A stretch of 64,000 bases of DNA from an uncultured Candidatus Rokubacteria bacterium. GTDB taxonomy: Bacteria > Methylomirabilota > Methylomirabilia > Rokubacteriales > DASRDR01. Of this stretch, positions 24,186-60,538 are shown one piece after another (positions within the stretch are counted from its first letter, which is position 1; each line of letters starts with the position of its first letter). A program made the position numbers and the translations under genes. A model generated the notes under the pieces. That model did not search any database. It was not told the DNA's origin and saw only the letters and a list, made by a program, of their open reading frames with translations. The stretch covers positions 535,195 through 599,194 of the forward strand of contig CAWDVE010000016.1 of assembly GCA_963805625.1 (NCBI GenBank), written 5' to 3'.

Positions 24186-24274
24186 ATGACATCTTTGTCA
24201 TGTTTCTTCTTGACAGGCCCTTTCACTCAGAGCTACGCTTTCAGCGCACGCTGAAAATGCTCGGACAAGTGAAA
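24186..24274 (+). promoter_or_regulatory. Sigma70 promoter overlapped by palindromic operators
   Basis: TTGACA 24210-24215, 18-nt spacer, TACGCT 24234-24239. Palindrome ATGACA-N4-TGTCAT at 24186-24201. Dyad TTTCAC...TTTCAGCG-CA-CGCTGAAA...GTGAAA at 24221-24274. Confidence 0.7.
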
Positions 24275-24276
24275 GT

Positions 24277-25329
24277 ATGGTTCGGATCGTCGAATTCAAG
24301 AAGGAAGCCGCGGAGCGGCTCCGCGGGTTATTTCCGCAAGTCGCGGAATGGCAGGAGTCTTTAGATGCAACCGTCGGAGACCAGACGGTGGATGTACTCG
24401 TCCGGTTCAAGATGGGGCAGGCGCAGGAGACCAAGACTCTGATCTGTGAGATCCGCTCCCGGGGCGAGCCCCGGTATCTTCGAGAGGCCATCACCCGACT
24501 TCGCGAGCTCCGGCCGCATCTGCCGGGGGCTTATCCGATCGTTGCTGCTCCCTACGTAACCCCACAGTCGGCAGCGCTCGTCAGGAGAAATAACTGTGGT
24601 TACTTAGATCTTGCTGGCAACTGCTATATCGCCTTTGACAACGTCCTGATCCAGAAGGAGGGGCGGCCCAACACCGGGCTAGTTCGCCGCCCGCTCAAGA
24701 CCCTCTTCGCTCCCCGCGCGACGCGGGTTGTGCGGGCCCTTCTGGTGGAGCGGGACCGGGCCTGGCGCCTGGACGAGCTGGGGCGCGCCGTCGGCGTGAG
24801 CCTCGGCCATGCCCACAACGTGATCAAGCGACTCGAGGAGCTCGACTGGGTCGAGCGGGGTCGGGACGGGCTCTACCGGCTGCCTCGTCCGGGCGAGCTG
24901 CTCGACGCCTGGCGCGACGCGTACAGCTACCGCGTCAATGGGCTCAGCGCCTTCGTCTCGCCCGCTGGAGACAAGCGCCGGGTCATGGAAGCCCTCACCC
25001 GGCACGCGACCGAGCTTGGCATGAGCTACGCGTTCACCCTCCACGCGGGGACGTCCCTGATCGGGCCGCACACGCGGGTCTCGGCCGTGCACTGCTACGT
25101 GAGCGGCGACATCGAGGCGCTGGCCCGGATCCTGGGGCTCCAGCCGGTGGAGGGCGAAGGATCCGTCTATCTCATGACCCCGTACGACCCGGGCGTCTTC
25201 TACGCGCCCGTGATCAAGGGGGGATTCCGGGTGGTCAGTCTCCCGCAGCTCTACGTGGACCTCCATAGCCACGAGCGGCGCGGGCGCGAGCAGGCGGAGA
25301 AGCTCCGTCGTGACGCGATGGGGTTCTAA
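24277..25329 (+). CDS. AbiEi-family (type IV TA antitoxin-like) wHTH protein, with no cognate toxin adjacent
   Basis: YLDLAGNCYI, central HTH (LDELGRAVGVSLGHAHNVIKRLEELDWV), PGELLDAW and C-terminal VVSLPQLYVDL...RGREQAE match the AbiEi_2-like family as I recall it. Confidence 0.65.
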   Translation: MVRIVEFKKEAAERLRGLFPQVAEWQESLDATVGDQTVDVLVRFKMGQAQETKTLICEIRSRGEPRYLREAITRLRELRPHLPGAYPIVAAPYVTPQSAALVRRNNCGYLDLAGNCYIAFDNVLIQKEGRPNTGLVRRPLKTLFAPRATRVVRALLVERDRAWRLDELGRAVGVSLGHAHNVIKRLEELDWVERGRDGLYRLPRPGELLDAWRDAYSYRVNGLSAFVSPAGDKRRVMEALTRHATELGMSYAFTLHAGTSLIGPHTRVSAVHCYVSGDIEALARILGLQPVEGEGSVYLMTPYDPGVFYAPVIKGGFRVVSLPQLYVDLHSHERRGREQAEKLRRDAMGF

Positions 25330-25362
25330 CCGCGCTCACGGCGACGGAAGGAGGTGAACACG

Positions 25363-25398
25363 ATGGCGAAGAAGAAGGCGGCGAAGAAGAAGAAGTAG
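25363..25398 (+). CDS. 11-aa lysine-rich micropeptide MAKKKAAKKKK, copy 1
   Basis: AAGGAGGTGA Shine-Dalgarno just upstream of ATG GCG AAG AAG AAG GCG GCG AAG AAG AAG AAG TAG. Confidence 0.65.
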   Translation: MAKKKAAKKKK

Positions 25399-25472
25399 TG
25401 TCGGAGGTGTCGCTCGAAGGGGGTGCAGCCCCTTCGCGGGACCGAAACCAAAATGAAGGGAGGTGATCATCA

Positions 25473-25508
25473 ATGGCGAAGAAGAAGGCCGCGAAGAAGA
25501 AGAAGTAG
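25473..25508 (+). CDS. 11-aa lysine-rich micropeptide MAKKKAAKKKK, copy 2
   Basis: GGGAGGTGA Shine-Dalgarno; same peptide as copy 1 with one synonymous change (GCG to GCC), starting 110 nt downstream of copy 1. Confidence 0.65.
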   Translation: MAKKKAAKKKK

Positions 25509-25567
25509 TGTGTGTGATCGGGTCAGGGGACGATGCCAGCCCTGATCCAGTGTGACTTGTCAGCGCA

Positions 25568-25600
25568 GGCCGCCGGGGGCGACTGGCACCCCCGGCGGCC
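25568..25600. terminator. GC-rich hairpin between convergent transcripts (micropeptides and rpmB)
   Basis: GGCCGCCGGGGG / CCCCCGGCGGCC 12-bp stem, with no clear U-tract. Confidence 0.45.
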
Positions 25601-25605
25601 GGTCC

Positions 25606-25797
25606 TCAGACGGCCTTGATGACCTTGCCCCCTCGCAGGCAGCGCGTGCAGACGCGGACCCGCTTGGCTCGGCCCCTCACGACCGCCCGCATCGATACCA
25701 GGTTCGGCAACCACCGGCGCGCGGAGACGTTGTGCGCGTGGCTGATCTGGTTGCCCACGACCGGACCCTTCCCACAGACATCACAGCGCTGGGCCAT
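25606..25797 (-). CDS. rpmB: 50S ribosomal protein L28
   Basis: MAQRCDVCGKGPVVGNQISHAHNVSARRWLPNL...VCTRCLR. Confidence 0.95.
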   Translation of the reverse strand: MAQRCDVCGKGPVVGNQISHAHNVSARRWLPNLVSMRAVVRGRAKRVRVCTRCLRGGKVIKAV

Positions 25798-43846: not shown

Positions 43847-44074
43847 ATGAAGGCCTACGACTTCAAGGTGCTCTTGGAACCGAATGAGACCGGTGGGTAC
43901 GTCGCGACGTGCCCCTCTCTTCCAGGCTGCTACAGCCAGGGCGACACGGTCGACGGGGCGCTGGACAACATCCGCGAAGCCATCGAGCTCTGCCTGGAGG
44001 ACATACAGGCCCACGGGGAGGTCATCCCGGATCCCTCCCGCGTCCTGGTCGGAAGCGTCGTCGTCACCCGATGA
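43847..44074 (+). CDS. hicB: HicB family antitoxin (short, no DNA-binding domain)
   Basis: GGYVATCPSLPGCYSQGDTVDGALDNIREAIEL; TATAAT at 43816-43821 and GGAGG RBS. Confidence 0.88.
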   Translation: MKAYDFKVLLEPNETGGYVATCPSLPGCYSQGDTVDGALDNIREAIELCLEDIQAHGEVIPDPSRVLVGSVVVTR

Positions 44075-44307
44075 CGTCCGGGCTTCCCGTCGTCTCCGGA
44101 CGGGAGGCCATCCGCGTCTTCGAGCAGCTCGGCTACACCGTCGTCCGGCAGCGCGGTAGCCACATCCGGCTCCGCCATGCGACTGATCCCTCCAGAAGGC
44201 CGCTGACGATCCCGGACCACCGCACGCTCAAGGCGGGCTTGCTGCGACACCTGATGCGCGACGCGGAGGTGGACCCCGAGGAGTTTCGCCGACTGCTGAA
44301 TCAGTAG
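44071..44307 (+). CDS. hicA: HicA family mRNA interferase toxin
   Basis: VSGREAIRVFEQLGY...RQRGSHIRL...TIPDH...GLLRHLM; ATGA overlap with hicB. Confidence 0.88.
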   Translation: MTSGLPVVSGREAIRVFEQLGYTVVRQRGSHIRLRHATDPSRRPLTIPDHRTLKAGLLRHLMRDAEVDPEEFRRLLNQ

Positions 44308-44767
44308 TGCGAACGTCTCGCGAACCAGTCTGGACCGACCGATTCCGCTATGCCCGAAACTATGCCCGCGACCGCCCTCCCCAGGCCCGAAACCACCCCC
44401 CGCCAGCCAAGCACCCAAAGAAAAACCCCTCGGCAAGTCCGCGACTTACCGAGGGGCTTCTATTTGCCCGCCTGCTTGACAGGCCAGCGTGGTAACCAGG
44501 CTCCACCACGACCCCGCCCTTGCAGATTAGCTACTTAGCGGATACCGGTCAAGGGCGAAACGACGTGGAAATGAAATCAGCTATACCCAACGTGCACACT
44601 GGCCTTTCGGCCAGGGATTTTCAGTCAGCAACATGCGTCGTTGGCCTGAATAGCGGCACACACGCCTGTTCCTGGCCAGAGCCCGGGTCGCTGGTTCAAA
44701 TCGGGGGCTGGATTTGCGTTGTGGAGGCGACCCGACTTGAACTTCGAGTTCGTACTCGAGTACTAGC

Positions 44768-44802
44768 GGACTCGAACCCGTGTTTCAGCCTTGAGAGGGC
44801 GG
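44768..44802 (-). other. tRNA-Glu(CUC) fragment (anticodon arm + T arm), probable att-site remnant
   Basis: Minus strand reads CCGCC-CTCTCAA-GGCTG-AAAC-ACGGG-TTCGAGT-CC; no D arm or acceptor stem. Confidence 0.6.
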
Positions 44803-44994
44803 AGACACGGTCTGCTGCGGCGCGGACTTACGCGGCGGTTGCCACCCGCGGTTGCCACGGCGCCTTCGAATGGGCAAGGGTTCTTGCCCCGTCATCGCCT
44901 CGGCGGCAACTTGAAGGGTGTGAGCGGTGACCGCCGTGGCGACGCGATCCCCAGTATAGCCAGCATTGAGTGCCATGGTCCCGCCGTAGTGTAC

Positions 44995-45390
44995 CTCCGC
45001 CAGTGCGAAGCTTCGAAGACCTGGCGGACTACACCGGGCTCCGTCTGGCCGATGGACCGCAGTCTCTCGGCCCGGCCCTTGAACGCGATGAGTGTTCTCT
45101 CCTGCGTGACCTTTCAGGCGCGAAGCAGATACCTACTCGAATCCAAGTCGACTTTGAACATCTTCACTTTGGAAAACGCAGGATCCGTCGAGTCCTATGC
45201 ACGATGGGTTCCTGCTTCTTGCAGGTGGTTCACCGCGGAGCAGTACCAGAGGACGATACCCTCGCCGGCCTCCTGAGCGGCCGCGAAAGCCTTCCGGTCG
45301 AAGTTCACGACGCCAGTAGAGGCAAGGCATGGCGACGCCGGCCAGCGCGACAAGGGCCGATGCGGCCATGATGAGGGTCCGGCGATCCAT
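44995..45390 (-). pseudogene. Decayed exported thioredoxin-like gene
   Basis: Signal-like MDRRTLIMAASAL, then across frames FDRKAFAAAQEAG, R*TTCKKQEPI (degenerate WCxxC) and FKVDLDS...TLIAFKG. Confidence 0.5.
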
Positions 45391-45833
45391 GGAGGAACTC
45401 CGGTTCCGAGGTGTCAGTTCGAAAGGGTTAGCACGCGGCGCGCCCCGAGTTGTCAGGGACGAGTCAGATCCGCGCGGCGTCCGGGCTCATCGGCGACCCG
45501 ACCGCCGCTCGTTCATATTGGCAGGCAGCAATTCCACTCCGCCCGGGCGTCGCGGCGCCCGGCGCCTCAAAAAGGCATCGGCGGGAGCAGGCACGTCGCG
45601 ATCTCGCTCGTCGAAACGTCGCGGACCCAGCGTCAACGATTGAGCAGAAAGCGTGAAACGCCGACGCGGAGCGCGAAGCGACCGTTCACCCGTAACACGG
45701 CGCACGTTCCGCGCGGCTTTGCCTTGTCGAGCAGCGCGTTCGCTAGGGCGAGAGCGGTTGTATCGGTCGCTTCCCGGCGGAGCTGAGCGACAAGCAACGA
45801 TTCACGCTCGCCGCGGGTTTGCATGCGTGCCAA

Positions 45834-47163
45834 TCACTGCCTCGGCACCCGCCAGAAAGGCCCCGCGATGTGTTCGAGGGGCCGGCCGGGCTCGTTAGGC
45901 CGTAGGCCGTACCGCAGCAGCGCGATGATGTCGGCGCTCACGTGCGGATTCGAAGTGAAGTAGCTGTGGCCGAAGAAGTCGCTCGTCCCGCTCACCTGGA
46001 TGATGTCGACCGCGCGCAACAAGGCGATCGCTTCGATCTGGTCAGCGCTGAACATCGTCGCGTCGATCCGCCCGAGCCGGGCGATGCTGCCGAACAGCCA
46101 GCTCGCCGTCGCGAGCGCCTTGTCGTCGGGCGAAACGTAGAGGGTGACCCTGAGGCCAGGTGAAGGGGGGATGACGGCGCCCGGGTCCGGTTTCCCGCCG
46201 AACGGCAAGTCAGGGTCGGAGAACGACTTTGAAGATCTTGGTCAGCGCGACGTCGCCATCAAGGTCGGGAGCGACGAGGACAACATTGCCGATGTGAAAC
46301 TCGCGATCCGGTGAGCTCTGGAGTGTGTAGGCTTCGACGCTGAGCTCGGCCAGCGCCGATGCGAGAGTGTCCGTGCCGCGGCTATGCGCGATGAGGTGGA
46401 TACGCTCCACGCCCGGCGTCCGGGCGACGATCCGGATCGCCTTCAACAGGTCCTCGACCGCGTATTCGGCCGACTCGCGGTCGACGTTGTAGCCGAACAG
46501 TATGCCGCGCCGTCCGCCGGCGGGCCACGTGAAGATGCCGCACACGAACTCCCGTCCTAGGAAATGGCACAGCTCGCCCATCGTCAGCGCTGCACTCTCG
46601 AAGCTGCTGTGGTAGCCGTGCACGAACAGCACGACTTCCTTGCGGCGCGCGATAGCGATCCGCCTCGCAATCTCGGCTTGCAGCTGCTGCTTCGCCTTTT
46701 CGTACGCCTCGACGACGGCGGGTACACGTCTTATGCCATCCGGAGCGACAACGACTTCATACGGTATGGCCGGAAAGCGACCGAGCTCCGTGGTCGGCCC
46801 GAGCTTGAGCTGCAGTGGATTGACGCGTTGCGTCGCGGTGCTTTCCTTGACCAGCACGTCCCAGGAGACGTCTTCGCCGAACTCGATCATCGCCGATCCG
46901 AACGCCATCGAACGCGATCGGCCCGCGGTATACGGCAAGTCACCGGCTTGCTCTGCCGGTGCGCGATCGGTGATGAACAGCAGATCGAGAGACGGCCGGC
47001 GACTGTCGATCGACAACTCGGTGAAAAGCGGCCTCGCATTCTCCCCTGTGTAGAGCACCGGGGTCGGCATCATCGGGTGGTTCGTCGCGCAGCCCGTCAG
47101 GACGAATGCGATGGCGGCGATGACGATGGCTGATCGCGCTCCGGGCGAGGACGTCCTTGCCAT
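45834..47163 (-). pseudogene. Alpha/beta hydrolase lipoprotein (DUF900-like), split by a one-base frameshift near 46224
   Basis: Lipobox LTGC, LFVHGY, FTWPAG and IAHSRG. Reading continues as FSDPDLPFGG...YVSPDDKAL...GHSYF in the next frame. Confidence 0.7.
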
Positions 47164-47425
47164 GCATCTCGGAGCACGCTTAGACATGGCCGCGAAGCAA
47201 ATCGATCGAGGTTCGGCGCACCCACACGCACCGCTGCTCCTCGCAGTGCGGGAGCTCGCCGCTGCGCACGCATTCGCCGATCGGGTGAGCTACGCCGCTC
47301 GGCAGCAGCAGGCGCCGACTTGTGGCACGTGATCGGTCATCGCTAAACCGGAATTGAGCGAGCCCGCCAGTACGGTCGCGCCCTGCGAAACCGTGATTCG
47401 CTTCAGAGTTGCCGACGACAAGCTG

Positions 47426-47968
47426 TCATGAGCCCGCATCTGCTGCATTCTTGCTTTCTTCGGCGGGCGGGACGCCGATTGGGGCGTCGCGCAGACGACC
47501 GACATCGCGCCACGCGTCACGAGCCGCAATCACCGCCCAGACAACGAGGTAGCTGAAACTCCACCACCCTAGATACTGGCCCCATCCCCAGATGATTGTG
47601 CCGAATGCCGAGAGTGCCAATCCCAGTTTCGCTGTATAGATGTCGTCCAACAGTTCGACCATGCTCGACCGTGACTCCTTGTTTCTCTGCAAGATCGCCA
47701 GCTCGAGGACGCCGTATCGGAGATATCTCCTCGACGCCAGCAGAAGACCGATCGCGGTCGTTAGGGAACCAGACCTTTCAAAGAGGTCCCAACGGTCGGG
47801 ACCTTTCGCAAACCCGGCGCAGATGAGCGGCGGACTCACAGCCAGGATAATGACGGCAACCCTGCGGGCACGATACGCGCCCGGAGTTCGCAAGCGAAAC
47901 CACTCTCGATAAGTACGCGTCAGGACATAACCCTTACAGATCGTAAGTGACCATGACTGTTCTCGCAC
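47426..47968 (-). CDS. Hypothetical membrane protein
   Basis: 180-aa ORF with several hydrophobic segments; start uncertain. Confidence 0.45.
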   Translation of the reverse strand: MREQSWSLTICKGYVLTRTYREWFRLRTPGAYRARRVAVIILAVSPPLICAGFAKGPDRWDLFERSGSLTTAIGLLLASRRYLRYGVLELAILQRNKESRSSMVELLDDIYTAKLGLALSAFGTIIWGWGQYLGWWSFSYLVVWAVIAARDAWRDVGRLRDAPIGVPPAEESKNAADAGS

Positions 47969-48090
47969 ATCACAATGAACTGGCGTGGGCGGCCCTGGTC
48001 AGTCACGACGTGATCGTCAACCTGATCGGAGCGACGAAGACCGCATCCGGTCTCCGCGTGAAGGCGCGCCTCGACCAACGCAGGTACCGA
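47957..48090 (+). mobile_element. ISAzo13-family transposase fragment
   Basis: Reads LFSHITMNWRGRP/LVSHDVIVNLIGATKTASGLRVKARLDQRRY with one frameshift, matching the C-terminal motif of that family. Confidence 0.75.
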
Positions 48091-48126
48091 TGGTTGAACA
48101 TGTTACTGCGGCTCTGACGGCCTCCG

Positions 48127-48798
48127 CTACGTGTTCCCAGTTGCTGATGCTGCGTCGTCCCGAACCGGCCGCCTCTGGTTCTGCGGGCGCCAAGCCGCGG
48201 CCCGCCGGAAGCGCAGCGACGCGAGAAGGATCACGATCCCGAAGACGATCGCGTAGGCGGCGAGGGCGAGCACGACGCGGTCCGAGCCGGCGTAGGGCGT
48301 GCCGAGCACCAGGCCGAGCACCCCAAGCGCGAGGAAGATCGAGAACGCGCCTCCGGTGCCGACGAGCCAGTGGGCGGCGAGCTTGGGCGGCAGCCCCACC
48401 GCGGCGACGATCTCACAAATCCCGGTCAGCACAGCCCACGCGATCAGGACTCCGATCGCCCCGCGCGGAAGAAACGGAAACGGCCAAACCAACGCCAGCA
48501 GTCCGAAACAGACGCTGATGATGCCTTCGAGCGCGATCGGCCAGCCCGTCATCCGCGCGGGGGCTGCTCGGAGCGCCGAAGCGATCGCCAGAATCCCGTC
48601 GGCGATCGCGTATGTGCCGAAGGAGACGATGGCAGCGTCGAACACCGGGATCCGCCAGAGCGCGATCGCAACTCCGAATAAGACCGCCAGGACACCGCGG
48701 CCGGCCACCATCCACCAATTCTTCACCAGCGGCTGCAGCTCCGCCGCAGCCTGCCACTCCGAGGCGCCGCCAGACGATGCAGTCGATCGCTGTGTCAC
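48127..48798 (-). CDS. HdeD/DUF308 family membrane protein
   Basis: NWWMVAGRGVLAVLFG, FGTYAIADG, WAVLTGICEI and AYAIVFG. Confidence 0.75.
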   Translation of the reverse strand: MTQRSTASSGGASEWQAAAELQPLVKNWWMVAGRGVLAVLFGVAIALWRIPVFDAAIVSFGTYAIADGILAIASALRAAPARMTGWPIALEGIISVCFGLLALVWPFPFLPRGAIGVLIAWAVLTGICEIVAAVGLPPKLAAHWLVGTGGAFSIFLALGVLGLVLGTPYAGSDRVVLALAAYAIVFGIVILLASLRFRRAAAWRPQNQRRPVRDDAASATGNT

Positions 48799-49402
48799 TG
48801 TATTATGCGAGACTCAGTAAGTGCGTCCCACGCCTTCTGATTGCCGCGATCGAAGGCCTTGCGCGACTCCGCCAAGGCTGCACTCATCGCCGCCCAGGAT
48901 TCGCTGCCCGCCTGCTTCAGCTTCTGCAATCGGGCTTCGGCCTCCGCCGCGTCCGTCTTCATCTGCTTCACCGCCGCATCGACATCGGCGCGCCTCGCGG
49001 CTGCGACCTTGGTGGCTTCACTGTGGAGCTTGTCGACCGCCTCTTGCCACGCCTTTGCATGCGCGGCGGTAACGTCCCGGAACGTGTCCTGTTGCTGCTC
49101 GATTTGCTTGCCGACGGTGTCAAAATAGGTTTTGACCTGCGCTTCAAAGCCGTGCCACTGCGACTCCAGATGAGCTTTGCTGGCTTGCATAGCGGCTTCG
49201 CCCGCCTGAGCCTGCGCCTTGGCTTTGGCTTGAAACTCGCCCCGCCGCTTCTTCATGTCGGCGAGCATTTGATCGGCTTTTGCCTTCGACTCGGCCTTCA
49301 CCTGACCCGCTTTGGCTTCGAGTGAAGCCACGTGGCATCCATCTCGTCAATTCGCTGCTTGGTCCAGTTCACGTACGCATGCATTCTGCTCTGTTCTGCC
49401 AT
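48795..49402 (-). pseudogene. Ala/Lys/Gln-rich coiled-coil protein with a frameshift near 49331
   Basis: MAEQSRMHAYVNWTKQRIDEMDAT continues as ASLEAKAGQVKAESK in the adjacent frame; GGAGG RBS. Confidence 0.55.
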
Positions 49403-49552
49403 GATCGCCTCCAATGCGCCGTTGTAATGCACGTCGGAACGGTGTTCACGATCACGTCGCCCGCCGGAATCACCTGCCACATGCCGCCGCCGATCGGCAC
49501 TGTCCCATTTGTGATCAGGTTACGCTACGTGTCGGAGCACCGATGTCCGCGC

Positions 49553-49621
49553 ATGCGCATCGCCGAACAAAGCTCCGGCCCGCGCGTCCTGCTGCACGGG
49601 CTCTCTGAATGCAACTACTCC
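49553..49621 (+). pseudogene. N-terminal fragment of an epoxide hydrolase-like alpha/beta hydrolase
   Basis: MRIAEQSSGPRVLLHGLSECNYS resembles the typical MHIAEQGxGPLVLLxHGFPExWYS start. Confidence 0.4.
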
Positions 49622-49678
49622 CTGCCGACAATACATCGTCCGTCTGGTCTAAGAAGGTTTTGCTGTGCGCTTGAATAT

Positions 49679-50569
49679 TCATTTGAACAGCGTCCCAGTA
49701 ATCAGCTTCGGAATCACCGGTGTGATTTGGAGCTGGACGTTCCATTCCGGGCCGCCCGTGGGTCTCTCCACGAAGTACTGTCCGCCGATCTGGATTTGCA
49801 CAGGGAGCTTCCCCCCCATCATGACCACCTTGGCTACCGATAGTCCGAGGGGCACAGTCCAGCGCTCACCGCTCCGCGCTTTCCAATCGGCCAGAATGCT
49901 GCCCGAGTAGCCGACGCTCCATCCGTCTCCGAAGAAACGGTAGATCAAAGGCAAGAGATTCAGCTGGCTTGTGTCCTTGCGGTCCCCGTCTCCGGCGAAA
50001 GACCACCATTGCTGGGCCAAGGCGGCGATCATGAACTCTTTCGTGATGTAGCCACCTCCGACAGCTGGCCCAACCTGCCACTTACCTTGGCCCGTGAAAT
50101 CCGAGCCAGCGGTCGGGAATATCCAGGTAGGTCCTACGCCAAAGATCCACGGCTCGGTGCCGGCGGGTGAAAGCACTTGCGCCAGGATGATGTCGCCGAA
50201 CGTTGTTTTCCGGTCGCTGCTATCGGGTCCCGTGGGAACCGGCACGCTGTTGTAGAGCGTGATCACGGGCCGGGTGATTAGATTGATGTCCTTGGTCAGG
50301 CTCACCGGCATGACGGGCTGAAAATAGAGGTTGTACACCCACTCCTCGCTCACCGGGCTGACATCCGCGCTCTCGAGTCTCACGTTGTTGAACTGAAACT
50401 GGAGCTGCCAGAGGCTGGTGACCGGGTTCGAGATCTCCTTGGCCAATTCACTAGCGGAGAGAGCTGCAGTTGCAGGAGCTGCCTGCGGCCAAGCGGGGGT
50501 GGCCTCGATAACGAGAGCAAGCAACGTAACGCCCACAATGACCTGCCACTCTCTCAGCCGCGTCGCCAT
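49679..50569 (-). CDS. Exported, probable outer-membrane protein (family often labelled 'neuromedin U')
   Basis: Signal peptide, ELAKEISNPV, FQPVMPVSL...LITRP, GPTWIFPTA, GKWQVGPA and WTVPLGL. Confidence 0.7.
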   Translation of the reverse strand: MATRLREWQVIVGVTLLALVIEATPAWPQAAPATAALSASELAKEISNPVTSLWQLQFQFNNVRLESADVSPVSEEWVYNLYFQPVMPVSLTKDINLITRPVITLYNSVPVPTGPDSSDRKTTFGDIILAQVLSPAGTEPWIFGVGPTWIFPTAGSDFTGQGKWQVGPAVGGGYITKEFMIAALAQQWWSFAGDGDRKDTSQLNLLPLIYRFFGDGWSVGYSGSILADWKARSGERWTVPLGLSVAKVVMMGGKLPVQIQIGGQYFVERPTGGPEWNVQLQITPVIPKLITGTLFK

Positions 50570-50576
50570 ACCATGT

Positions 50577-50860
50577 CCCCCTCGTCTCGATACGACGCTA
50601 CGGCCCTCAAGCGTGCGACGCTAGGGGGAACTTGGTCGCGACAGCTGACCGCCCCACGACATCGCGCGATACTTTCGTACTGGCGCGCGCGACGTTGGGC
50701 TTGAGGAGGGAGTGTTTCTACCTTGGTGGTAGCGCCTGGTTGGCCGCGGTGATGCCGAGCCGGTCGGCCATGCGAACGAGCTCCGGCAGCGTTTCCGCCT
50801 GCATCTTCCGCATGATCTGACCGCGAAGCGCCTTGACCCTGGTCTCACTGAGATTGAGAT
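50577..50860. repeat. 284-bp direct repeat, copy 1 (3' end of response regulator plus downstream intergenic DNA)
   Basis: Ungapped near-identical match to 56889-57172 (offset 6312). Confidence 0.9.
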
Positions 50861-51255
50861 GGCCCCGTGGGATGCGGCACGCTCTGGTACAGGGTAATCA
50901 CGGGGCGTGTGATTAGATTGAGATCGTTGGTGAGACCCACCGGCAGGACGGGTTGAAAATAGAGGCTGTACACCTACTTCCCGCTCTCAGGGTTCGAATT
51001 CCCGGTCTCAAGTCTGTAATTGTTGATCTGGAACTGGAGCGACCAGAGCTCGGTGACCGGGTTCGTAATCCCCTTGGCCAATTCACTCGCCGACAGTTCA
51101 CTAGCCGAAATCGCAGCCGAACTCCCTTGCGCACAGGCTGACGTTGCACAGGCAATGACCGTCACGAGCGCCAAGGCCGTTGTGCATATTGCTTTGGCCA
51201 ACACATTCCCGATGCTCGCCGCCGGGAGAGCTCTGACGTGCTCATAGAGCCTCAT
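50861..51255 (-). pseudogene. Truncated paralog of the 49679-50569 outer-membrane protein
   Basis: ELAKGITNPVTELWSLQFQINN...GK*VYSLYFQPVLPVGLTNDLNLITRPV; internal stop at 50974-50976, cut off at the repeat boundary. Confidence 0.75.
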
Positions 51256-51620
51256 GGTTCTCCTCCATCTGGGAAACCGGTTCGCTTTCTTCCGCGCGGG
51301 CCTGCACTACCAAATTAGTGTCGCTACCTGGGTCGTGTCCTGCTTGATGTGGACAATGCGGGGGCGCACCTTCCGGTGCGCGCGTGATAAAGGGCGGCAT
51401 CGCTTGGATCCGGATCGCGCGACACGGGCACTTCTCGGGAATACCCCAGATAAGGGTCGGGCCGTCGCCCTCGATCCATGGCGCATTGCACCCGGTGGCC
51501 GCATGGCCTGGCGGCTCGCTTCGGGTTCGCCAACTCCCAACAGCCGGAGGAATGCGCCATTCCCTCTTTCCGCACCAATCGGGCCCCGACCGCTACCTCG
51601 CTCCCGGAATGGTTGTTGCT

Positions 51621-53207
51621 CTACTGCGCTAACGTTTTAACCGCGTTCCAGACGACGTGAAGGTCGTTACTCACTCGTGGGAACGGGTTTGGTTCCTTGG
51701 CGAGATTCAGCAGTTTGAAGACCGCCATTTGCGCGGAGCGCACCGAATATTCCATCGTGAACACACAATCGTCTGGCACTTCAACGAACTGACCGGTGAG
51801 GGCCACGTTGGTTGAGCCTTTCGGAACAACATCAGGTCGGTCAGTAACCTTTCTCTTCAAAAACTGGCTTGTGACGAACGGCATCCTGCAGGGGATGACA
51901 TTCGACGAATCGAGAATCCGCTTCAGGTCGGCGTCGAACTTCAAGTGATGCACCAACTCCTCTAGAATCTCTCTTCCGGTGCATTCACCCATTGGTTTGC
52001 GGACATAGTCGCCGATTTTGTCAGCGTAGAGACCCAAGCCGTAGAACACGTACACGCCTGCTGCCTGGTTCTGGTAATACGGCTGATGGTTGAGGATAAA
52101 CGTCAGCGACCAACTGGACTCTGGAAACGAGGTGATCCCGTTCTTACCAGCTTCTTGCCCGCTGAACTTCTCCATTAAGTCGAAGAACCGCCGGTCCTTT
52201 TGGGTCACCGTGAATGACGTGAATGACGACTCGTCGATGTGACCGGTGAAGACCGACGGATCACGAAAGATGTCCTTGCGCTTGCGAGCCAGAGTCTCCC
52301 ACAGTGCCCATTTCCCCTCATGCGTCGACGACGTGATCAGCTTCGGCGCGGAACTATTCGAGCCAAATGAGGCATTCGCGACCATCGAGCCCAGCGTCGC
52401 GATGACAATGGCCTCCGGCCTGACTTCAACCGTCCTTTGCTTTCCGTCCTGGACCATCGTGATCCCGTGGGCGGTGAGTTCGCCATCAGGGTCGTTCCCG
52501 AGGTCGATATCGGTCACTCGTGTGTCCCCCACGTACTGCACACCACGGTCGGTCAGCCACTTGAGGATCGGGCGCACCATCGAATCGTACTGGTTATACC
52601 TGGTGTGGTGGAGCAACGTTTGAGTTGCCATGTCTGGGAACAGATGCATGAATCTCAGCAGGTAGCGGCGCATTTCAATGGCGCTGTGCCATGGTTCAAA
52701 GGCAAAGAGTGTTTTCCACATGTGCCAGAAATTCGTTGTAAAGAAGTGCTCCGAGAAGACGTCGTTGATACGCTTATCGTTCGACGCTCTCTCCGGTTTG
52801 GAAGTCAACGCGAGGAGCTCTAGCTCGTCTTTCGCACTAAACCCGTAAGAGCGGAAGTTCATAATCTTACCGTTGTCGACCAGGCGAGCCTTGTTGTTCC
52901 ATCGGTAGGCCTTAGTGAACTCGAGGGTGTCCTGCTTGATCGTTTTCGTCGGGTCATCCACTGAGGGGATGAAAGACAGCAGATCGTACATGCAGACGTA
53001 ATTCTCCTCGAACATGCGCTCGCCGCGCATGAAGTAGCCCTGTTCGGGAGCGCCAGCTGAGTCAAGACATCCGCCCGGTAGATGTTCCTCTTCGTAAATG
53101 GCGATGTTCGCGCCCGAAAAGCCGCCGTCTTTGATCAGGTAGGCCGCGGCAGCCAGATTGGCGATGCCTGACCCGACCAGGTGTGCCTTGCGTCCTTCAT
53201 TGTTCAT
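51621..53207 (-). CDS. Oleate hydratase (MCRA family), short type
   Basis: AHLVGSGIANLAAAAYLIKDG, GGCLD, RGERM, TRYNQYDSMVRP and FTMEYSVRSA. Confidence 0.88.
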   Translation of the reverse strand: MNNEGRKAHLVGSGIANLAAAAYLIKDGGFSGANIAIYEEEHLPGGCLDSAGAPEQGYFMRGERMFEENYVCMYDLLSFIPSVDDPTKTIKQDTLEFTKAYRWNNKARLVDNGKIMNFRSYGFSAKDELELLALTSKPERASNDKRINDVFSEHFFTTNFWHMWKTLFAFEPWHSAIEMRRYLLRFMHLFPDMATQTLLHHTRYNQYDSMVRPILKWLTDRGVQYVGDTRVTDIDLGNDPDGELTAHGITMVQDGKQRTVEVRPEAIVIATLGSMVANASFGSNSSAPKLITSSTHEGKWALWETLARKRKDIFRDPSVFTGHIDESSFTSFTVTQKDRRFFDLMEKFSGQEAGKNGITSFPESSWSLTFILNHQPYYQNQAAGVYVFYGLGLYADKIGDYVRKPMGECTGREILEELVHHLKFDADLKRILDSSNVIPCRMPFVTSQFLKRKVTDRPDVVPKGSTNVALTGQFVEVPDDCVFTMEYSVRSAQMAVFKLLNLAKEPNPFPRVSNDLHVVWNAVKTLAQ

Positions 53208-53604
53208 TACAGTCGCCTTTCCGGTCTGAGCGGACATTGAATGTACCGTCGCGCTCTCCGTCCTCTCGTCGGCTATTGCCATGCCTCCTCAGGGCGTGCC
53301 ACGAACCCCGTCCCGTCTCATACCGAGCGCGGTATATGCCGTCGGCGATGAGCTTCTGATACAGCTCGACGCCGGTCGTCCCCGGCATTCGATGTCGGAC
53401 AGAACTTTGGCGTTGGGAGGCGACCAATTGGACTCAGGCTCTTTCCAAGGTGCGCCGTCCGCTGAAGGCAAAGGAGGACTGGAGCACGCGCGTAAAACGG
53501 CCCCCAGTCCTCCGCTAACAGCCGAACCAGCCCGATCTTGCAACTTGACAGTCCCGGCCCATTCACCGCGATCTGAATCGTCAGACTGCCGTCTCTCCGC
53601 TGGT

Positions 53605-55462
53605 CTAGAGGACCGTGCGAGTCACCCGCGGAGGGTTCTTGTGTATCGCGACCGTGAGCTCGTCGTCGCCGAGTTCGCCGATCCACCCGTAGTCCCGCAG
53701 CAGCTCGCCGATTTCGGTCTTCTCCAGATCTTGAACGCCGGTGAGATATCGAATCAACGCCTCGATCGGGGCGGGCAGCTTTCAGCTTCTCGCCATCCCG
53801 CAGCACGGGCGCCGAGTTGAGCATCGCACGAATGTCGTACTGCGAGCCCCACGGCTCCGGCACGCCCCGCTCGATGTCCAGCAGGGTGTAGACCGCTTCC
53901 ATCGCCGTCCGCGCGGAGTATTCGACGGTGAAGATGACGTCCCGCGGGTGGCTCTCGGCGAGCTGCCCCAGGAACCCGAAGTTGACCGCTCCCTCGGGCA
54001 CCACCTTGGGACGGTCGCCGTCACGCCGGGGCATGAAGAAGGCCGTGATGTAGGGCATCATGCACGGATGCACGATCACCGACTTGGCCGCCAGCTGGTT
54101 GATCTGATCGTCCGGCACCCCCAGGTGGTAGAGCCATTCCCGGGCGATCTCCTCGCCGGTGCAGTCCTTCAGCGCCTTCTTGACGTAGTTGCCGGGCCGG
54201 TCGAGGCTGTACGTGCCGTAGGCGTGGATCATCAGCTGGCCCTTCGGGTGGTTCCTGAAGTGCGGGTTGCGCTCGACGTTCCACGACAGCATCCAATTGG
54301 AATCGCGCACGGTCACCAAGCCGCCGGTGATGGGCTTCCCGTCGTGACTGGACGTTTCGCGCTGGCAGATCCGCTCGATGTAGGGCGGAATCTTGTCGTC
54401 GAGGGTGCGGATGCATGCCGACTCATAGCTGGTCTTGTCGGTGTGGGCACAGAACTTGTCGGGCCGACCGAAGGCGGGGTCCTGGGCGGCGATGTTGCGC
54501 CACATCGCCCAGATGCTGCCCTCCTGGATGTCCCTGTTCCACTTGGCCGGGGTGTGGTGGTCCCCCCACGCGGTGTTTTCGACCGCGGAGCCGTTGGTAA
54601 TGAGGACGAGGTCGTTCTCGGTGACGTCGCGTCCTCCGCGCTTTCCGCCCTGGATCCACTCGATCCGGCGAGCGACCTTGCGTTCCGGGGTGATGTCGAA
54701 CACGACGTTGGTGACCTTCGTGTCGTACACAATCGTGACGCCTTGCTGCTCGAGCCACTTGACTAGCGGGAGGATCAGAGAGTCGTACTGGTTGAGGCGA
54801 GTGAACTTGATGGTGCTGAGATCATGTAACCCACCGAAGTGCTGGACGAAGCGTTGCATGTAGAGCTTCATCTCCAGGGCGCCGTGCCAGGGCCCGATGG
54901 CGAACATCGACAGCCAATACACCCAGAAGTTGCTCTTGAAGAACTCCTCGCCCACGAATTCCTCGAACCGCTTGTCGTATAGCTCTCTTCGGTGGGTGAA
55001 GAAGAGCTTCATCAGCTCGCCCTGCGCCTTGGGGGTCAGGAGCATCTTGCCGTCGGTCGGGAAGGGCTGCCCGCGCTTGTGAGTGGTCCGGCACAGGGAG
55101 TAGTTGGGGTAGTCCTTGTTGATCTGGTAATAGTCTTCAAGGACCGAGGCGCCCTTGACATCGAGCGACGGGATCGAGCGCATCAGATCCCACAGGCACT
55201 CGTAGTGGTCCTCCATCTCGCGCTCGCCGCGGAAGAGGAAGCCCTCCTTTGGGTCCTCGATGCCGTCCAGGCAGCCGCCGCAGATATTGCTCGCCTCGTA
55301 GATGGTGATGCGTTTGCCGTCCATCTGCCCGTCGCGGATCAAGAAGCCCGCCGCCGCGAGCGAGGCGATGCCACCGCCGATGAGATAGGCAGACTTCTCG
55401 TCCACGCCCTGCGGCTTGCGGGGACGAATGAACGCTTCGTAGTTACCATTGCTGTAGAACAT
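53605..55462 (-). CDS. Oleate hydratase (MCRA family), long type; single-base frameshift near 53781
   Basis: MFYSNGNYEAF start with AAGGAG RBS, GGGIASLAAA, RGEREM and FTVEYSARTAMEAVY. Removing one A restores KLKLPAPIE...TEIGELLRDY to a stop at 53605. Confidence 0.85.
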
Positions 55463-55539
55463 GTGTCTCTCCTTTCTGGCGTTGTTGAAGAACGTAGGAG
55501 GTGCTAGCGACGTTTCTCGGTCCCGCTCCCCGTACACCC

Positions 55540-55882
55540 GTGCTCGCGCCTCGGCACCCAGGCCGCACTCGTCCCGCCGCCGCGCCGGCCCTTGCTGGCG
55601 TACCATGGCCTGCTCGCCCCCCGCGCCGAATGGCGATCGGCGATCATCCCGAAGCTGGCCCCTGACGGCGCGCGCGCGGACGCAGGCTCGCGATCACCGG
55701 GACGGTGGCCCTGGGCCCGGCTCCTCCGCCGGGTGTTCGCGATCCAGGTGCTCGTGTGCGAGCGCTGCGGGGGCGCGCGCCGGATCCTCGGCGCGGTGAC
55801 GGAGCCGCACGCGGTGCGGCGGGTGCTCTGGTGCCTTCGGTCCAGCGGCCGATTGTCGAAACCCAGCCTCGGGCCGAAATAA
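55540..55882 (+). mobile_element. IS91-family transposase C-terminal fragment
   Basis: YHGLLAPRAEWR...WARLLRRVFAIQVLVCERCGGARRILGAVTEP motif. Confidence 0.75.
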
Positions 55883-55928
55883 GGCGTCGCCGTATTCTGA
55901 ATTCCGATTGGCAGGAGCGGCGACATAC

Positions 55929-56822
55929 TCATGGTGAGATAGCTCTGGGTGGCCCAGGCGGATTCCCAAGTGGGATGGTGATGCGAACGTTTACGCTGAT
56001 CAGGGAGGCGCCGTAATTCTTCTCATACACGTCGGTTGTAACGTACCCTTGTAAAACTACTTGTTTGAAGTAATAGCCGACAAGCGGCCCCAACTGGAAT
56101 TGGCTTTGCTTTTTGTAGCCGGCAATCGGCGCGTTGAGATCGGTGGAATACCCACCTACCGCCCCCAACTCCCAGTTGCCGAACCTCTTGGTCGCCGTCA
56201 AGTCGACGTTGAGGAAGTCCGGGTTACAGCCATTGTGAGGGTGGGCGGCCGAAACCGGGCACGGCGATATTTGTGGCTTGCTTGTGACCTCGTCAAATTG
56301 GATACCCCAGATAATGTTCGCGGTCAGGTTCCATCCGTTGCCGACGTAGCTGAGCGCGAAGCGCTGATTGAGCGAGTCTGAGCTATACCCGACCGGGCTA
56401 CCAATGTCGATGTAGCCGCCGAGCAAATAGCTGACGCCGAAGTCATGGCCGAGATCCCAGGCCAGTTGAGCCCCAACATACGGATTGAACAGGCCGCTCT
56501 CGCTGACCGTGTCGTAAATTCGAACGTTCACCGGAACCACAGGCGCGGTGGACAGTACCAGTCGTCCGCCAACAATCGTCCAGGGGGTCGACCAAACCAA
56601 GACGGGGACATCGTCTAGGACAGCGGTGCCATGCGGGCTTGTGGCCCGGTAATCCTCGGTCAGTTGATTCTGGAAATAGACGCCTGGAGGAAGCGGCATT
56701 CCCACCGCAGCGCCAACTGTGTCACCCGGACGCGTGACGGAGCCACCAAGCGCCGGCGCAGCGGCGCCAATCGACAGCACAGCGGCTGCCGCCCCCGCGA
56801 TCAACTTCGCGCTCAATCTCAT
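55929..56822 (-). CDS. Phenol_MetA_deg-like outer-membrane transporter
   Basis: Signal peptide, GMPLPPGVYF, alternating beta-strand pattern and NVDLTATKRFGNWELGAVG. Confidence 0.65.
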   Translation of the reverse strand: MRLSAKLIAGAAAAVLSIGAAAPALGGSVTRPGDTVGAAVGMPLPPGVYFQNQLTEDYRATSPHGTAVLDDVPVLVWSTPWTIVGGRLVLSTAPVVPVNVRIYDTVSESGLFNPYVGAQLAWDLGHDFGVSYLLGGYIDIGSPVGYSSDSLNQRFALSYVGNGWNLTANIIWGIQFDEVTSKPQISPCPVSAAHPHNGCNPDFLNVDLTATKRFGNWELGAVGGYSTDLNAPIAGYKKQSQFQLGPLVGYYFKQVVLQGYVTTDVYEKNYGASLISVNVRITIPLGNPPGPPRAISP

Positions 56823-56888
56823 TCCGTCCTCTTCTCGCGGATCCATGCGTCGTCGTCCACGATCGCGATCACAGGCCGTTACGCCATA

Positions 56889-57172
56889 CCCCCTCGTCTC
56901 GATACGACGCTACGGCCCTCAAGCGTGCGACGCTAGGGGGAACTTGGTCGCGACAGCTGACCGCACCACGACATCGCGCGATACTTTCGTACTGGCGCGC
57001 GCGACGTTGGTCTTGAGGAGGGAGTGTTTCTACCTTGGTGGAGGCGCCTGTTTGGCCGCGGTGATGCCGAGCCGGTCGGCCATGCGAACGAGCTCCGCCA
57101 GCGTTTCCGCCTGCATCTTCCGCATGACCTGACCGCGCAGCGTCTTGACCCTGGCCTCACTGAGATTGAGAT
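56889..57172. repeat. 284-bp direct repeat, copy 2
   Basis: Matches 50577-50860. Confidence 0.9.
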
Positions 57173-57678
57173 CGCCGGCGACCTGCTTGTTCAGGCGCCC
57201 GCTCACCACGTGCCGCATGACGTCCTGTTCGCGTGGCGTGAGTGCGGCGAAGCGTCGGCGGAGCTCCACGAGCACGCGCGCATCGGCACGGCGGGCGCGG
57301 TCGCGCGCGATGGCCGCCTGGATGGCGTCGATCAGATCCTGATCACGGAACGGCTTGGTGAGGAACTCCACGGCACCGGACTTCATCGCTCGCACGGTCA
57401 TCGGGATGTCGCCATGGCCGGTGATGAAGACGATCGGAAGCTCCATGTCTGTGCCCACGAGAGCTTTCTGGAAGTCGAGACCGCTTTGCTCGGGAAGTCG
57501 GACGTCGAGGACGAGGCAGCCCGGCGCGTCGGGCCGTCGTGTCTTCAGAAATTCCCCCGGCGAGGCGAAGAGCCGGACGTCCAGGCCAACCGACTGCAAC
57601 AGATCCTCGATCGTCGTCGCGAACCAGGGCGTCGTCGTCGACGACGAAGACGATCGGCTGCTCGGACGGCGCAGGCAT
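57030..57678 (-). CDS. FixJ/NodW-type response regulator (REC + LuxR HTH); frameshift near 57614
   Basis: IVFVVDDD, LVLDVRLP, FITGHGDIPM, FLTKPF and LTPREQDV...LNKQVA. Confidence 0.85.
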
Positions 57679-57689
57679 GGGCAGCGTCG

Positions 57690-60538
57690 TTATGCGACGC
57701 CCGTGTCGTCGGACACGAGGGGCAGCCAGAACTGGAAGATCGCGCCGTGAGGGGAATTGGGTATCGCGCTGATCTTGCCGCCATGCGCTTCGACGATCGA
57801 CTTGCAGATCGAGAGCCCCATGCCGAGTCCACTCTGCTTCGTCGTGTAGAACGCCTCGAACACTCGGGCCCGCGAATCCGGAGCGAGCCCTACGCCCGAG
57901 TCGCGGACCTCCACGTGCACGTTCTTGCCAGCCTCGGAGCGTGACGCGACCCACACCTGGCGGGAACGGCCCTCGATCTCACGCGTCGCGTCGATCGCAT
58001 TGAGGATCAGGTTCAGAACCACCTGCTGCAGTTGAACGCGATCTCCGGGAACGGCGGGCAGCTCTTCCGCGAGGCGTGTCTTGAGCGACACCCCGGACCG
58101 CTGTAGCTCATGGCGAACCATCGCGATCACGTCACGGACGATCTCGTTGAGGTCGACGGGCTCGACGCGCAGCGGCTGGCGCTTGACCAGCGTGCGGACG
58201 CGGTCGATGACGGCGCTCGCACGGGTGCCCGCCTTCATGATCCGCTCGAGCGCCCGCTGCGCCCGTTGCAGGTTCGGCGGCTGGGCGGCGAGCCAGCGCG
58301 AGCAGGACGAGGCGCTGCTGACGATGCCGAGCAACGGCTGGTTGACCTCGTGCGCAATCGACGCGGTCACTTCTCCGAGCGTCGTCACGCGCGTCACATG
58401 AGCGAGCGCCGCTTGTGCCTCTCGCAGGGCGTGCTCCGCTTGCTTTCGTTCCGTCACGTCCCTCACGGTGCCGAGCACCTCGACGACGTCTCCAGCTCCG
58501 TTGAGCACAGGGTGGCAGGTCGCCTGCACGTGTCTCACAGTTCCGTCGGGCAGGAGAATCCGGTACTCGTGTTCGAGGTCGACCTTCTCGCGGACGGCCC
58601 TCGCACGGACGCTGTGCACGCCCTCGCGATCGTCGGGGTGAAGTCGCTCGTCGATGACGTCTCGGGGCGGTGGTTCGTGCTGGGGATCGAGATCGAACAA
58701 CCTGAACATCTCTGCGGACCAGGACATTGTCCCGGACGCGCGGTCCCAGACCCAGCTGCCCGTGTGGCTCAATCTCTGTGCTTCGGCCAGCGTGGCCTCA
58801 CTTCGCCGAAGCGCTTGCTCCGCCCTCTTGCGATCTTCGTCGGCAAGCTCGGCAAGGTGCGCCGCGAGGGCGTCCCGCTCGAGCGCTGCCGCCAGGAGGC
58901 TCCCCCACATGGCCATGTTGTTCGGACGCTGGGCGGTGTAGCCGCCGTGGGCTTCGATCGGGCCGCGGAGGGCGAGGACTCCCCAGTCGCGTGACGCGCT
59001 GGCGACCGGCACGAGCATCAGCACGTCGGTGCCGACGGCGGATCCCGGCACCTGGCACCACTCGGCCGGCGGGAACGCGCCGGCGATGAAGTGCGTGCCT
59101 CGATCCGGCAAGGGCGGCCCGGACAGGCGATACGTGCCAGCAACCGTCAGCGTGCTCGTTGAAGAGCGCGTCGCGTCGGCGTAAAGCGCGAGACATCCCC
59201 AACGCGCCGGGGTGAGCCTGAGCCAGTCGAGCTCCTGCGCCTGCTCGGTCTTCCCGGAGAGCAGCATCATCGCAAGCCTGGGCGAGTCCTGCGTCAGCTC
59301 CTCGAGATGCGTCATCTCCTCATGCCGATAAGCCACTCGAGCGCGCCAGAGCTTGAGCTCGGACCGCGCGAGGAACGCCGCGAGGCGGTGAGCGCGATCC
59401 GGGTCTGGTGGCATCGCGGCCAGGCGCTGCGCTCCGGCACGAGACAGGAGCGCGCTCATCGCCCGCAGCACATCCAGGTCGCGTGTCAGGCGCACCGCCT
59501 GCTGCCACGCCTGCCTCAATGCCGCCGGGGTCGGTTCAGGGTCTCCGGCGAGCGCGGCATCGATTCCGCCGATCAGCGTCTCGACGCCTGGCCAGATGTC
59601 GCCGGGAACCTGGGCCGGGTCGGAAGGCACGGGGAACAGCGCCATGCGCACGAGGTGAGCGGCGAGGGCGCTGTTCCCGCACGCGGCGAGCGACTTCCGC
59701 GCCTGGCGGCTGCGCAAGGTCGTCGGCCATATCGCACCCGCACGAGCGCCGACGAATCAGCGCGACCGGCACGCGATGCGCGGTGCGCGGGACCGCACTC
59801 CCGCTGATCTCATCGAGGAGGAGACTCGCGGCCCGCCGGCCGAGCTCGTCGAAGCGCGTGCGAAGCGTGGTCAGCGGAGGATCGGCGAGATCCGCGACCG
59901 TCCGATCGTCGAAGCCGACCACCGCGACGTCCTCCGGGACGCGGAGTCCGGCCGCCCGCAAGACCTCCATGACGCCGACGGCATTCCGGTCGGTCCCGGC
60001 CACCACCGCCGTGCACGGCCAGGCGGCGCGCTCAAGGAGCTGTCTGGCGCCCGCGCGGCCACTGGCTGTTTGCCTGTCATCGACGTCGATGACCAGTTCG
60101 GGCGAGCAAGGCAGTCCGCTCTCCGTCAGCGCGTCGCGATAACCCTCGTACCGTTCCGCGATCGCGGGATACTCGAGCCAGCCGATGAAGGCGATGCGAC
60201 GGTGGCCGTGAGCGACCAGGTGGCGCACAGCTTCGCGAAGCGCCCTGCCGGTTGTCGGCGACGACCGCAGGGCACCCGACCTCCGGATCGTGGTAGGCGA
60301 CGGTCACCAGCGGCAGCCCGAGGCGGGCGAGGGCGGCCAGCCCAACGGGCGAATGAACCGCGATCCACCCGCGGACCTCGCGAGCGAACGGTGCGACGGC
60401 AACGTCGCCCGGTGTCCCGCGGAACACCAGGAGTCGAGCGTGACGTTCGCGTGCCACGCGCCCGATACCCTCCAGAATGCCGCCGTAGTATTCGCCGCCC
60501 AGGACTTCCATCACCGCGCCGATCGTGAGATCGCTCAT
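57690..60538 (-). CDS. Sensor histidine kinase with N-terminal LacI-type ligand-binding domain and PAS; split by frameshifts near 60236 and 59700
   Basis: ADNRQGA...HLVAHGHRRIAFIG...RVPEDVAVVGFDD...PPLTT (LacI sensor), EAQRLSHTGSW (PAS), IAHEVNQPL (H box), LNLILNAID and GLGMGLSIC. Confidence 0.75.

Follow-up and report, generated by a model that had tools for sequence, protein, structure and literature searches.

Lysine-rich micro-genes behind a toxin-less AbiEi-type regulator across Rokubacteriales: a candidate minimal nucleic-acid-binding polycation

In the 64,000-nucleotide stretch of Candidatus Rokubacteria DNA analysed here (the window), two micro-ORFs on the forward strand, at 25363-25398 and 25473-25508, both encode the 11-residue peptide MAKKKAAKKKK. 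Comparison of the genomes of the order indicates that these micro-ORFs are under selection at the level of the peptide, and that the regulator in front of them descends from a family whose other members pair with AbiEii-type toxins. Outside the order, a second regulator derived from a toxin-antitoxin (TA) module precedes peptide genes of the same kind. Both the TA ancestry of these independently recruited regulators and the fixation of the AbiEi version throughout the order are new. We lean, with a little more confidence than doubt, towards a ribosome-made minimal polycation that resembles the tail of histone H1 and whose dose is set by an autorepressing former antitoxin.

The features of the locus, in window coordinates, are:
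24210..24239, forward strand: putative sigma70-type promoter (-35 TTGACA at 24210-24215, 18-nt spacer, -10-like hexamer at 24234-24239)
24221..24274, no strand assigned: nested palindrome with its core at 24239-24256, built of two TTTCA and two TGAAA boxes; the repressor encoded downstream likely uses it as operator
24277..25329, forward strand: AbiEi_2-type regulator of 350 aa without a toxin partner (Pfam, structure model, 61/61 genomes of the order)
25348..25398, forward strand: micro-gene 1 (Shine-Dalgarno 25348-25357, ORF 25363-25398, MAKKKAAKKKK), RBS duplex -18.2 kcal/mol
25415..25436, extending to about 25406-25445, forward strand: hairpin after copy 1, likely mRNA-stabilising (spacer fold -25.1 kcal/mol)
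25459..25508, forward strand: micro-gene 2 (Shine-Dalgarno 25459-25466, ORF 25473-25508, MAKKKAAKKKK), RBS duplex -17.9 kcal/mol
25516..25599, no strand assigned: two hairpins (25516-25547 and 25569-25599; RNA folding) that close the unit against convergent rpmB
25606-25797, reverse strand: rpmB, convergent (Pfam L28)

Re-reading the sequence upheld the layout given in the original prediction. The two ORFs start 110 nt apart, each behind the Shine-Dalgarno (SD) sequence GGAGGTGA, and differ by a single synonymous base in an Ala codon; copy 1 begins 33 nt past the stop codon of 24277-25329; and a hairpin follows each copy, at 25415-25436 and 25516-25547. To these we add the third hairpin at 25569-25599, ahead of rpmB, which was absent from that list. 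None of the three hairpins has a U-tract, and a consensus promoter and terminator scan listed neither them nor the promoter, which fell below its threshold. Seven loci compared at genus level keep the copy-1 hairpin, L005 showing a single two-sided change (an eighth row was left out as the wrong strand). No same-strand gene follows the micro-ORFs, since rpmB is convergent; by motif search rpmB adjoins the unit in 56/62 flanks. Rfam gave 0 matches over the whole window, including no leader family, and the locus holds no modification or export genes. Elsewhere in the window, positions 44000-58000 have a lower GC content (0.585-0.64), were probably acquired, and carry two tandem MCRA-family genes (51621-53282 and 53318-55606), two Phenol_MetA_deg genes and a DUF900 hydrolase.

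The micro-ORFs behave as genes. In 61/61 genomes of the order, an orthologue of the upstream gene is followed by one to three SD-led Lys/Ala micro-ORFs, the counted genomes being kin. Downstream flanks were read at 30/30 loci, then at 31 of 32 fetched, plus one remaining genome; the single miss was a wrong flank, one genome carries two copies, and micro-ORFs were present in every genome. The 115 copies of the order contain 916 Lys, 305 Ala, 43 Arg, 33 Thr and 29 Gly and no Asp or Glu; they start with ATG (98) or GTG (17) and stop with TAG (72) or TAA (43). The 11-mer occurs as 24 copies in 8 DNA variants and the 12-mer as 21 copies in 12, and these variants leave the residues of the Lys frame unchanged but alter those of the +1 frame, with start, stop and SD spacing preserved. 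In the wider peptide family, Lys codon choice tracks the GC content of the host: AAA makes up 138 of 276 codons below 45% GC and 36 of 719 above 60% (rho 0.75). The selection on the peptide that had been proposed is thus borne out by both the codon-level variation and the codon choice. The search of related genomes that had been suggested, here for the SD-plus-peptide-start pattern, matched 137/201 genomes of the phylum and 0/201 in the reversed control. Within the order, neither absence from relatives nor frame-breaking variation, both named beforehand as points that would count against the micro-ORFs, was found, and because 61/61 genomes carry the unit and the control is empty, chance and an assembly artefact are excluded as its source. 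All seven Lys codons of each copy are AAG, as had been noticed, and we reject this as a special signal because 90% of Lys codons in the long ORFs of this genome are AAG (14692 against 1558 AAA); 14/14 AAG in two copies has a p of about 0.24, and AAA supplies half of the Lys codons in low-GC hosts.

A genome scan for short Lys-rich ORFs revealed a third copy, VAKKKATKKKK, at G000:C10:712627 (L031:8628-8663). It is stand-alone, with a strong SD, its own TTGACA...TAGGAT promoter-like site and a hairpin, and is without the operator; its neighbours are presumably tsaB-like, nrdR-like and glyA-like genes. Paired with the genome's own anti-SD, the three copies reach -18.2, -17.9 and -18.0 kcal/mol, and only 3/1895 long ORFs have an RBS of -16 kcal/mol or below. 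Further families of the order also have this stand-alone locus (L070-L075). In G038, two regulator copies (C254 and C266) each have two peptides behind them. A record labelled Deferrimicrobiaceae (L194/L342, G207) holds the full Rokubacteriales unit, with a regulator of 57% identity, the same peptides and rpmB, and is likely mis-titled or mis-binned.

The regulator matches Pfam AbiEi_2 at 21.3 bits against a cut-off of 21, and PADLOC and NCBIfam return nothing for it. Its model (pLDDT 88) consists of an N-terminal PD-(D/E)xK-like domain, a winged helix and a C-terminal NTase-fold domain. Structure comparison of the model gives Z 11.6 to 1y88 for the N-domain, and Z 10.6 to 4xje, 10.3 to MenT1 and 8.2 to AbiEi 6y8q (rmsd 3.4, 105 aligned) for the C-domain. 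The description of this gene as an orphan of the AbiEi type stands in that no toxin accompanies it, but it is otherwise a core gene, single-copy in 60/61 genomes of the order, vertically inherited and not mobile. Full-length relatives outside the clade share 31-40% identity. In the sister-order relatives that we fetched, the next gene, of 250-295 aa, matches AbiEii or NTP_transf_8; 4/6 of these toxin-candidate genes tested over the cut-off and 2/6 under it. The micro-ORFs had been placed in the slot of the AbiEii toxin, and the nearest relatives indeed carry AbiEii-type toxin genes at that place. Micro-ORFs occur at 0/18 of the loci fetched from these relatives, and this genome has 0 matches to AbiEii PF08843 and a best tblastn E of 0.057 with the toxins of three relatives. 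In a tree of 37 rows, a 100/100 branch separates the peptide-linked regulators, which follow family lines, from 15 toxin-side relatives; 22/45 peptide-linked sequences were kept, one frameshifted, one duplicate and one partial sequence were dropped, and the root is a midpoint only. In some toxin-paired relatives (L043/L052, L065, L067) the match to one of the two genes is split, that to the antitoxin in L043 and that to the toxin in L065 and L067, which suggests decaying bacterial TA copies.

Two regions of the regulator have fared differently. Position 60, the lysine of the E-x-K motif, is R, T, S, A or G in 42/45 peptide-linked copies and K in at most 2, and the lysine is present in 6/8 toxin-paired relatives; as a group, the peptide-linked regulators lack the E-x-K lysine expected of a catalytic PD-(D/E)xK domain. 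In the C-terminal domain, D328, R335 and G336 are kept in 45/45 peptide-linked and 8/8 toxin-paired copies, and E338 is E or D throughout. This conservation may point to a second role of the C-domain, in ligand or partner binding, beyond what simple autorepression explains.

The upstream region suggests how the unit is controlled. TTGAC lies in the same place in 29/30 printed upstream regions of the alignment; in two regions the alignment search chose a second TTGAC, the correct one being present. The nested palindrome spans the -10 region and the start, and its core, TTTCA-N8-TGAAA, is found in 30/30 orthologous loci and also ahead of the toxin-paired relatives L039, L041 and L042. The exact core occurs once in the 7.27-Mb genome, with no further exact copy that would point to a regulon beyond the locus. 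AbiEi and Rv2827c are reported to repress themselves through inverted repeats in their own promoters (PMC7319586). By analogy, the palindrome is likely the operator for autorepression by the regulator.

In the sister order Methylomirabilales, the peptides lie behind a different pair, a wHTH protein of 189 aa with a HEPN protein of 149 aa (Pfam HEPN), which matches PADLOC PDC-M05A (E 1.9e-42) and PDC-M05B (E 1.3e-12). A model of a Nitrospirota homologue has the MNT fold (8xeh/8xeo). Among the 31 Methylomirabilales genomes searched, 27 have an orthologue (one partial), and one to three peptides follow at 27/27 loci; distant paralogues with an intact GS...SDxD motif have peptides at 0/3, one of them with only 208 nt of flank. 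Scored by what we take to be the catalytic motifs, the MNT motif has decayed to varying degrees in the peptide-linked copies, and the HEPN protein of the peptide-linked module is without R-x4-6-H. A palindrome lies over the -10 of the wHTH-MNT gene, with a two-sided change between genera. In four genomes in the phylum of L129 (Nitrospirota by label), the same HEPN gene is followed by 2-3 peptides. An orphan Nitrospirota version without HEPN has a peptide behind it at 74/74 evaluable metagenome loci (80 in total, 6 too short to evaluate); all are close kin, and they are not independent events because they are at least 81% identical to one query. The peptide-linked wHTH-MNT regulators cluster at 100/98, against only three intact paralogues. 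The AbiEi-type regulator in Rokubacteriales and the wHTH-MNT(+HEPN) module in the sister order and Nitrospirota are thus two unrelated TA-derived regulators recruited to the same peptide genes. The simplest history, on an unrooted comparison, would be an old MNT-HEPN-peptide unit whose regulator was replaced by AbiEi in the ancestor of Rokubacteriales. A complex prediction with the Methylomirabilales MNT and HEPN proteins and their 32-aa peptide scored 0.00, which counts on neither side. In family f7 of the sister order (L322, L324-L327, L330), the first peptide has 23-32 residues, ends in Gly-Cys and lies about 490 nt after the MNT gene; L344-L346 have similar Cys endings. The Cys ends of family f7 could possibly serve as a disulfide or as a lipid or metal anchor.

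Further afield, a scan of one genome per species found at least 120 loci with a family-like pattern. Among the matches listed, 77 in the first 80 and 38 in the remaining 40 are closed ORFs of at most 40 aa, and most stand alone, at least 100 nt from the preceding gene. Those listed fall, by label, into Acidobacteriota, Eisenbacteria, Planctomycetota, Nitrospirota, Verrucomicrobiota, Patescibacteria, DPANN and other archaea, some of which may be mis-binned. An acidic residue occurs in 3/115 of the wider matches listed, and those three may be unrelated. Near-universality is established only for Methylomirabilota, because a strict pattern occurs in only 7/81 and 4/81 genomes of two phyla outside it. 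Six pattern matches in viral contigs include no closed Lys-rich micro-ORF.

Family members range from 11 to 39 aa; at a planctomycete locus that several of them share they span 18-109 aa: the 18-, 22- and 39-aa members have their downstream neighbour in common, and the 39- and 109-aa members a common upstream neighbour and a similar terminator. On the H1-like Hc2 models (PF07382, NF038052, NF038053) the 109-aa, H1-like member scores 22.2 bits for a cut-off of 40, 21.9 for 80 and 19.2 for 135. The 20-39-aa members have zero matches on HC2 models, the 11-mer is below the minimum length of the tools, and 0/10 relatives of 20-109 aa are present in a collection of 15 billion proteins. In three planctomycete loci (L078, L143, L153), a gene that we assume to be lysA-like lies 229-326 nt 3' of the micro-gene, with a terminator and a separate promoter-like site in between. 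In L077 and L134 (Acidobacteriota), a long gene, presumably for a polyphosphate kinase, stands 106 nt ahead of the peptide gene. L100:1680-2301 (reverse strand) holds an operon-like run that joins an HTH_17 gene, a third kind of HTH regulator seen ahead of a peptide, to a Lys-rich micro-ORF of 20 aa and a Lys-rich protein of 100 aa containing an internal repeat. This last protein, which is reminiscent of archaeal CC1, has no match in Pfam, NCBIfam or PDB, falls only into unnamed Atlas clusters and carries no weight in our argument. Our literature search found no account of these micro-genes or of this pairing; supplementary small-ORF catalogues might list such peptides.

Assemblies of RNA libraries (8 of the 24 listed runs, all contigs) contain contigs of relatives that bridge the regulator 3' end and copy 1 (X3 record 12, X7 record 19, X9 record 26, X10 record 5) and copies 1 and 2 (X3 record 13, X9 record 27). 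They are compatible with one transcript, strand, level and RNA origin not being given by contigs. In several runs the summed contig depth peaks over the peptides; we set this aside because contig depth is no basis for ranking genes and Lys-rich sequences of other organisms supply much of it. Gaps over neighbouring genes carry no evidential weight.

We propose that the regulator and both copies would lie on one mRNA, the peptide part of which would be shielded by the hairpins, and that translation would initiate very strongly at both copies. The initiator Met is as a rule removed before Ala, which would leave a 10-mer with seven lysines. This 10-mer would neutralise charge and compact nucleic acid non-specifically, as polyamines or H1 tails do. 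Through likely repression of its own promoter, the regulator would likely set the peptide dose; the third copy, free of the operator, would keep up a basal supply, and the output of the autorepressed tandem pair would be adjustable. Binding to nucleic acid, already suggested in the original prediction, remains the best reading of the peptide; it is predicted purely from composition, and RNA, ribosomes and polyphosphate fit as well as DNA. Against an H1-like role, all characterised H1-like proteins are much longer than the 10-mer, whose binding would be weak, and the genome already holds three HU/IHF genes. The HC2 family has no match in this genome.

The unit is wired like an AbiE operon, yet is not an AbiE system. 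With AbiE (AbiEi PF09952/AbiEii PF08843; S. agalactiae AbiEi, M. tuberculosis Rv2827c) it shares the AbiEi_2 match, the winged helix and the NTase-fold C-domain (Z 8.2 to 6y8q), the regulator as first gene, promoter inverted repeats whose binding is predicted, and toxin-paired nearest relatives. Of the features of the AbiE type IV/VII toxin-antitoxin system, it has the AbiEi-family gene and the promoter inverted repeats and lacks the downstream AbiEii; it further differs in its extra N-terminal PD-(D/E)xK-like domain, its core inheritance and the 11-aa peptide genes in the toxin slot. The peptides resemble Hc2 PF07382, Bordetella BpH1 and NF038053 in their acid-free Lys/Ala/Thr/Pro composition, and the 109-aa member scores weakly, but they are 10-20 times shorter, have no pentamer periodicity, come as tandem micro-genes and stay below all cut-offs. 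The likeness is thus one of composition and not of family membership by score, and DNA binding is predicted. MNT-HEPN pairs of the PADLOC PDC-M05 type match the sister-order regulator pair in both components, in Pfam HEPN and in the MNT fold (8xeh/8xeo); the sister-order pair is a counterpart from other lineages and not the gene of the window, and it differs from such MNT-HEPN pairs in its decayed MNT motif, its HEPN without R-x4-6-H and the peptide genes behind it. Polyamines and protamine-like proteins are small, highly cationic and presumed to bind nucleic acid non-specifically; the polycation here differs in being gene-encoded, Lys- rather than Arg-based and, as proposed, under a dedicated repressor.

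The peptide could instead act as effector in a functioning switch of the TA kind, directed at stress or phage, in which derepression would release a flood of polycation, condense the nucleoid or block translation, and lead to dormancy. Hc1 and Hc2, reported to condense DNA and to repress transcription and translation (PMC2848022), underlie this main rival and the H1 analogy alike. The toxin-slot position behind two unrelated regulators of TA or defence origin, the match of the second to the candidate defence system PDC-M05A/B and the extreme RBS strength also fit a switch, and titration of AbiEi by foreign DNA has been proposed (10.64898/2026.01.19.700257). However, the gene is core, vertically inherited and at a fixed housekeeping locus, the same genome carries a strongly promoted stand-alone copy that lacks the operator, most of the other-phyla copies among the matches listed have no regulator gene directly upstream, and none of the 6 viral matches is such a micro-ORF. 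We consider a working switch unlikely, if worth keeping in mind. Alternatively, the peptide might associate with ribosomes or RNA as a small basic protein, or act as a general RNA chaperone, and be no chromatin component at all; small basic ribosomal proteins such as bS22, bTHX and eL41 offer a comparison, the peptide is short, very basic and strongly initiated, and rpmB usually adjoins it. But rpmB is on the opposite strand and is not a neighbour in Methylomirabilales, Nitrospirota or other phyla, and the free variation in length and low-complexity sequence (11-109 aa) is not expected of proteins that fill a fixed ribosomal pocket, which makes this reading quite unlikely.

The other possibilities are much weaker. 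An NTase-fold domain in both recruited regulators and the invariant C-terminal motif of the AbiEi type would suit a substrate or precursor that serves as a signal once modified, for example by that domain or by an enzyme encoded elsewhere; with the MNT catalytic motif decayed in peptide-linked copies, no SET domain found in the genome and no modification or export genes at the locus, this is very improbable. A leader-peptide role, in which charged Lys-tRNA is sensed to control a neighbouring gene, would explain seven Lys in 11 codons, the hairpin behind each copy and the lysA-like gene presumed downstream in the planctomycete loci. Unlike at an amino-acid attenuator, no same-strand operon follows here, and no Rfam leader was found; the planctomycete copies end in a terminator before a separate promoter-like site, the 109-aa orthologue has a different downstream gene, and tandem and stand-alone copies with varied neighbours do not look like attenuation. 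Since AAG use is the bias of the genome, AAA takes about half of the Lys codons in low-GC hosts and rpmB is convergent, the Lys-tRNA sensor of the original prediction is unsupported, and we give it hardly any credence. Least probable of all is a purine-rich non-coding RNA with an incidental reading frame. Its (AAG)n repeat resembles ARN triplets, a protein-binding RNA motif, and the flanking hairpins are conserved, but the changes are silent in the Lys frame and alter residues in +1, start, stop and SD spacing are preserved, AAA replaces AAG in low-GC hosts, and neither Hfq in the genome nor an Rfam match was found.

Returning to the H1-like polycation, a bolder version, which we think doubtful, would make the ribosome-made 11-residue peptide an effector of chromatin or dormancy in a phylum-wide, unannotated 'micro-H1' system. 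TA modules would have been domesticated twice to control it, as a decayed MNT-HEPN module in Methylomirabilales and Nitrospirota and as AbiEi replacing MNT-HEPN in the ancestor of Rokubacteriales; the logic of derepression by stress or phage would have been kept and the enzyme toxin swapped for a nucleoid-condensing peptide.

These micro-genes point to a class of peptides, probably abundant and predicted to bind nucleic acid, that would escape both gene callers and tryptic proteomics and that is carried by an abundant soil lineage and many other uncultured groups. Cultured or enriched carriers are, by label, Fontivita pretiosa (L150) and Methylomirabilis (L130). The locus also offers a clean, twice-repeated case of a TA regulator that appears to have become a core transcription factor, with a defined putative operator that is directly testable.
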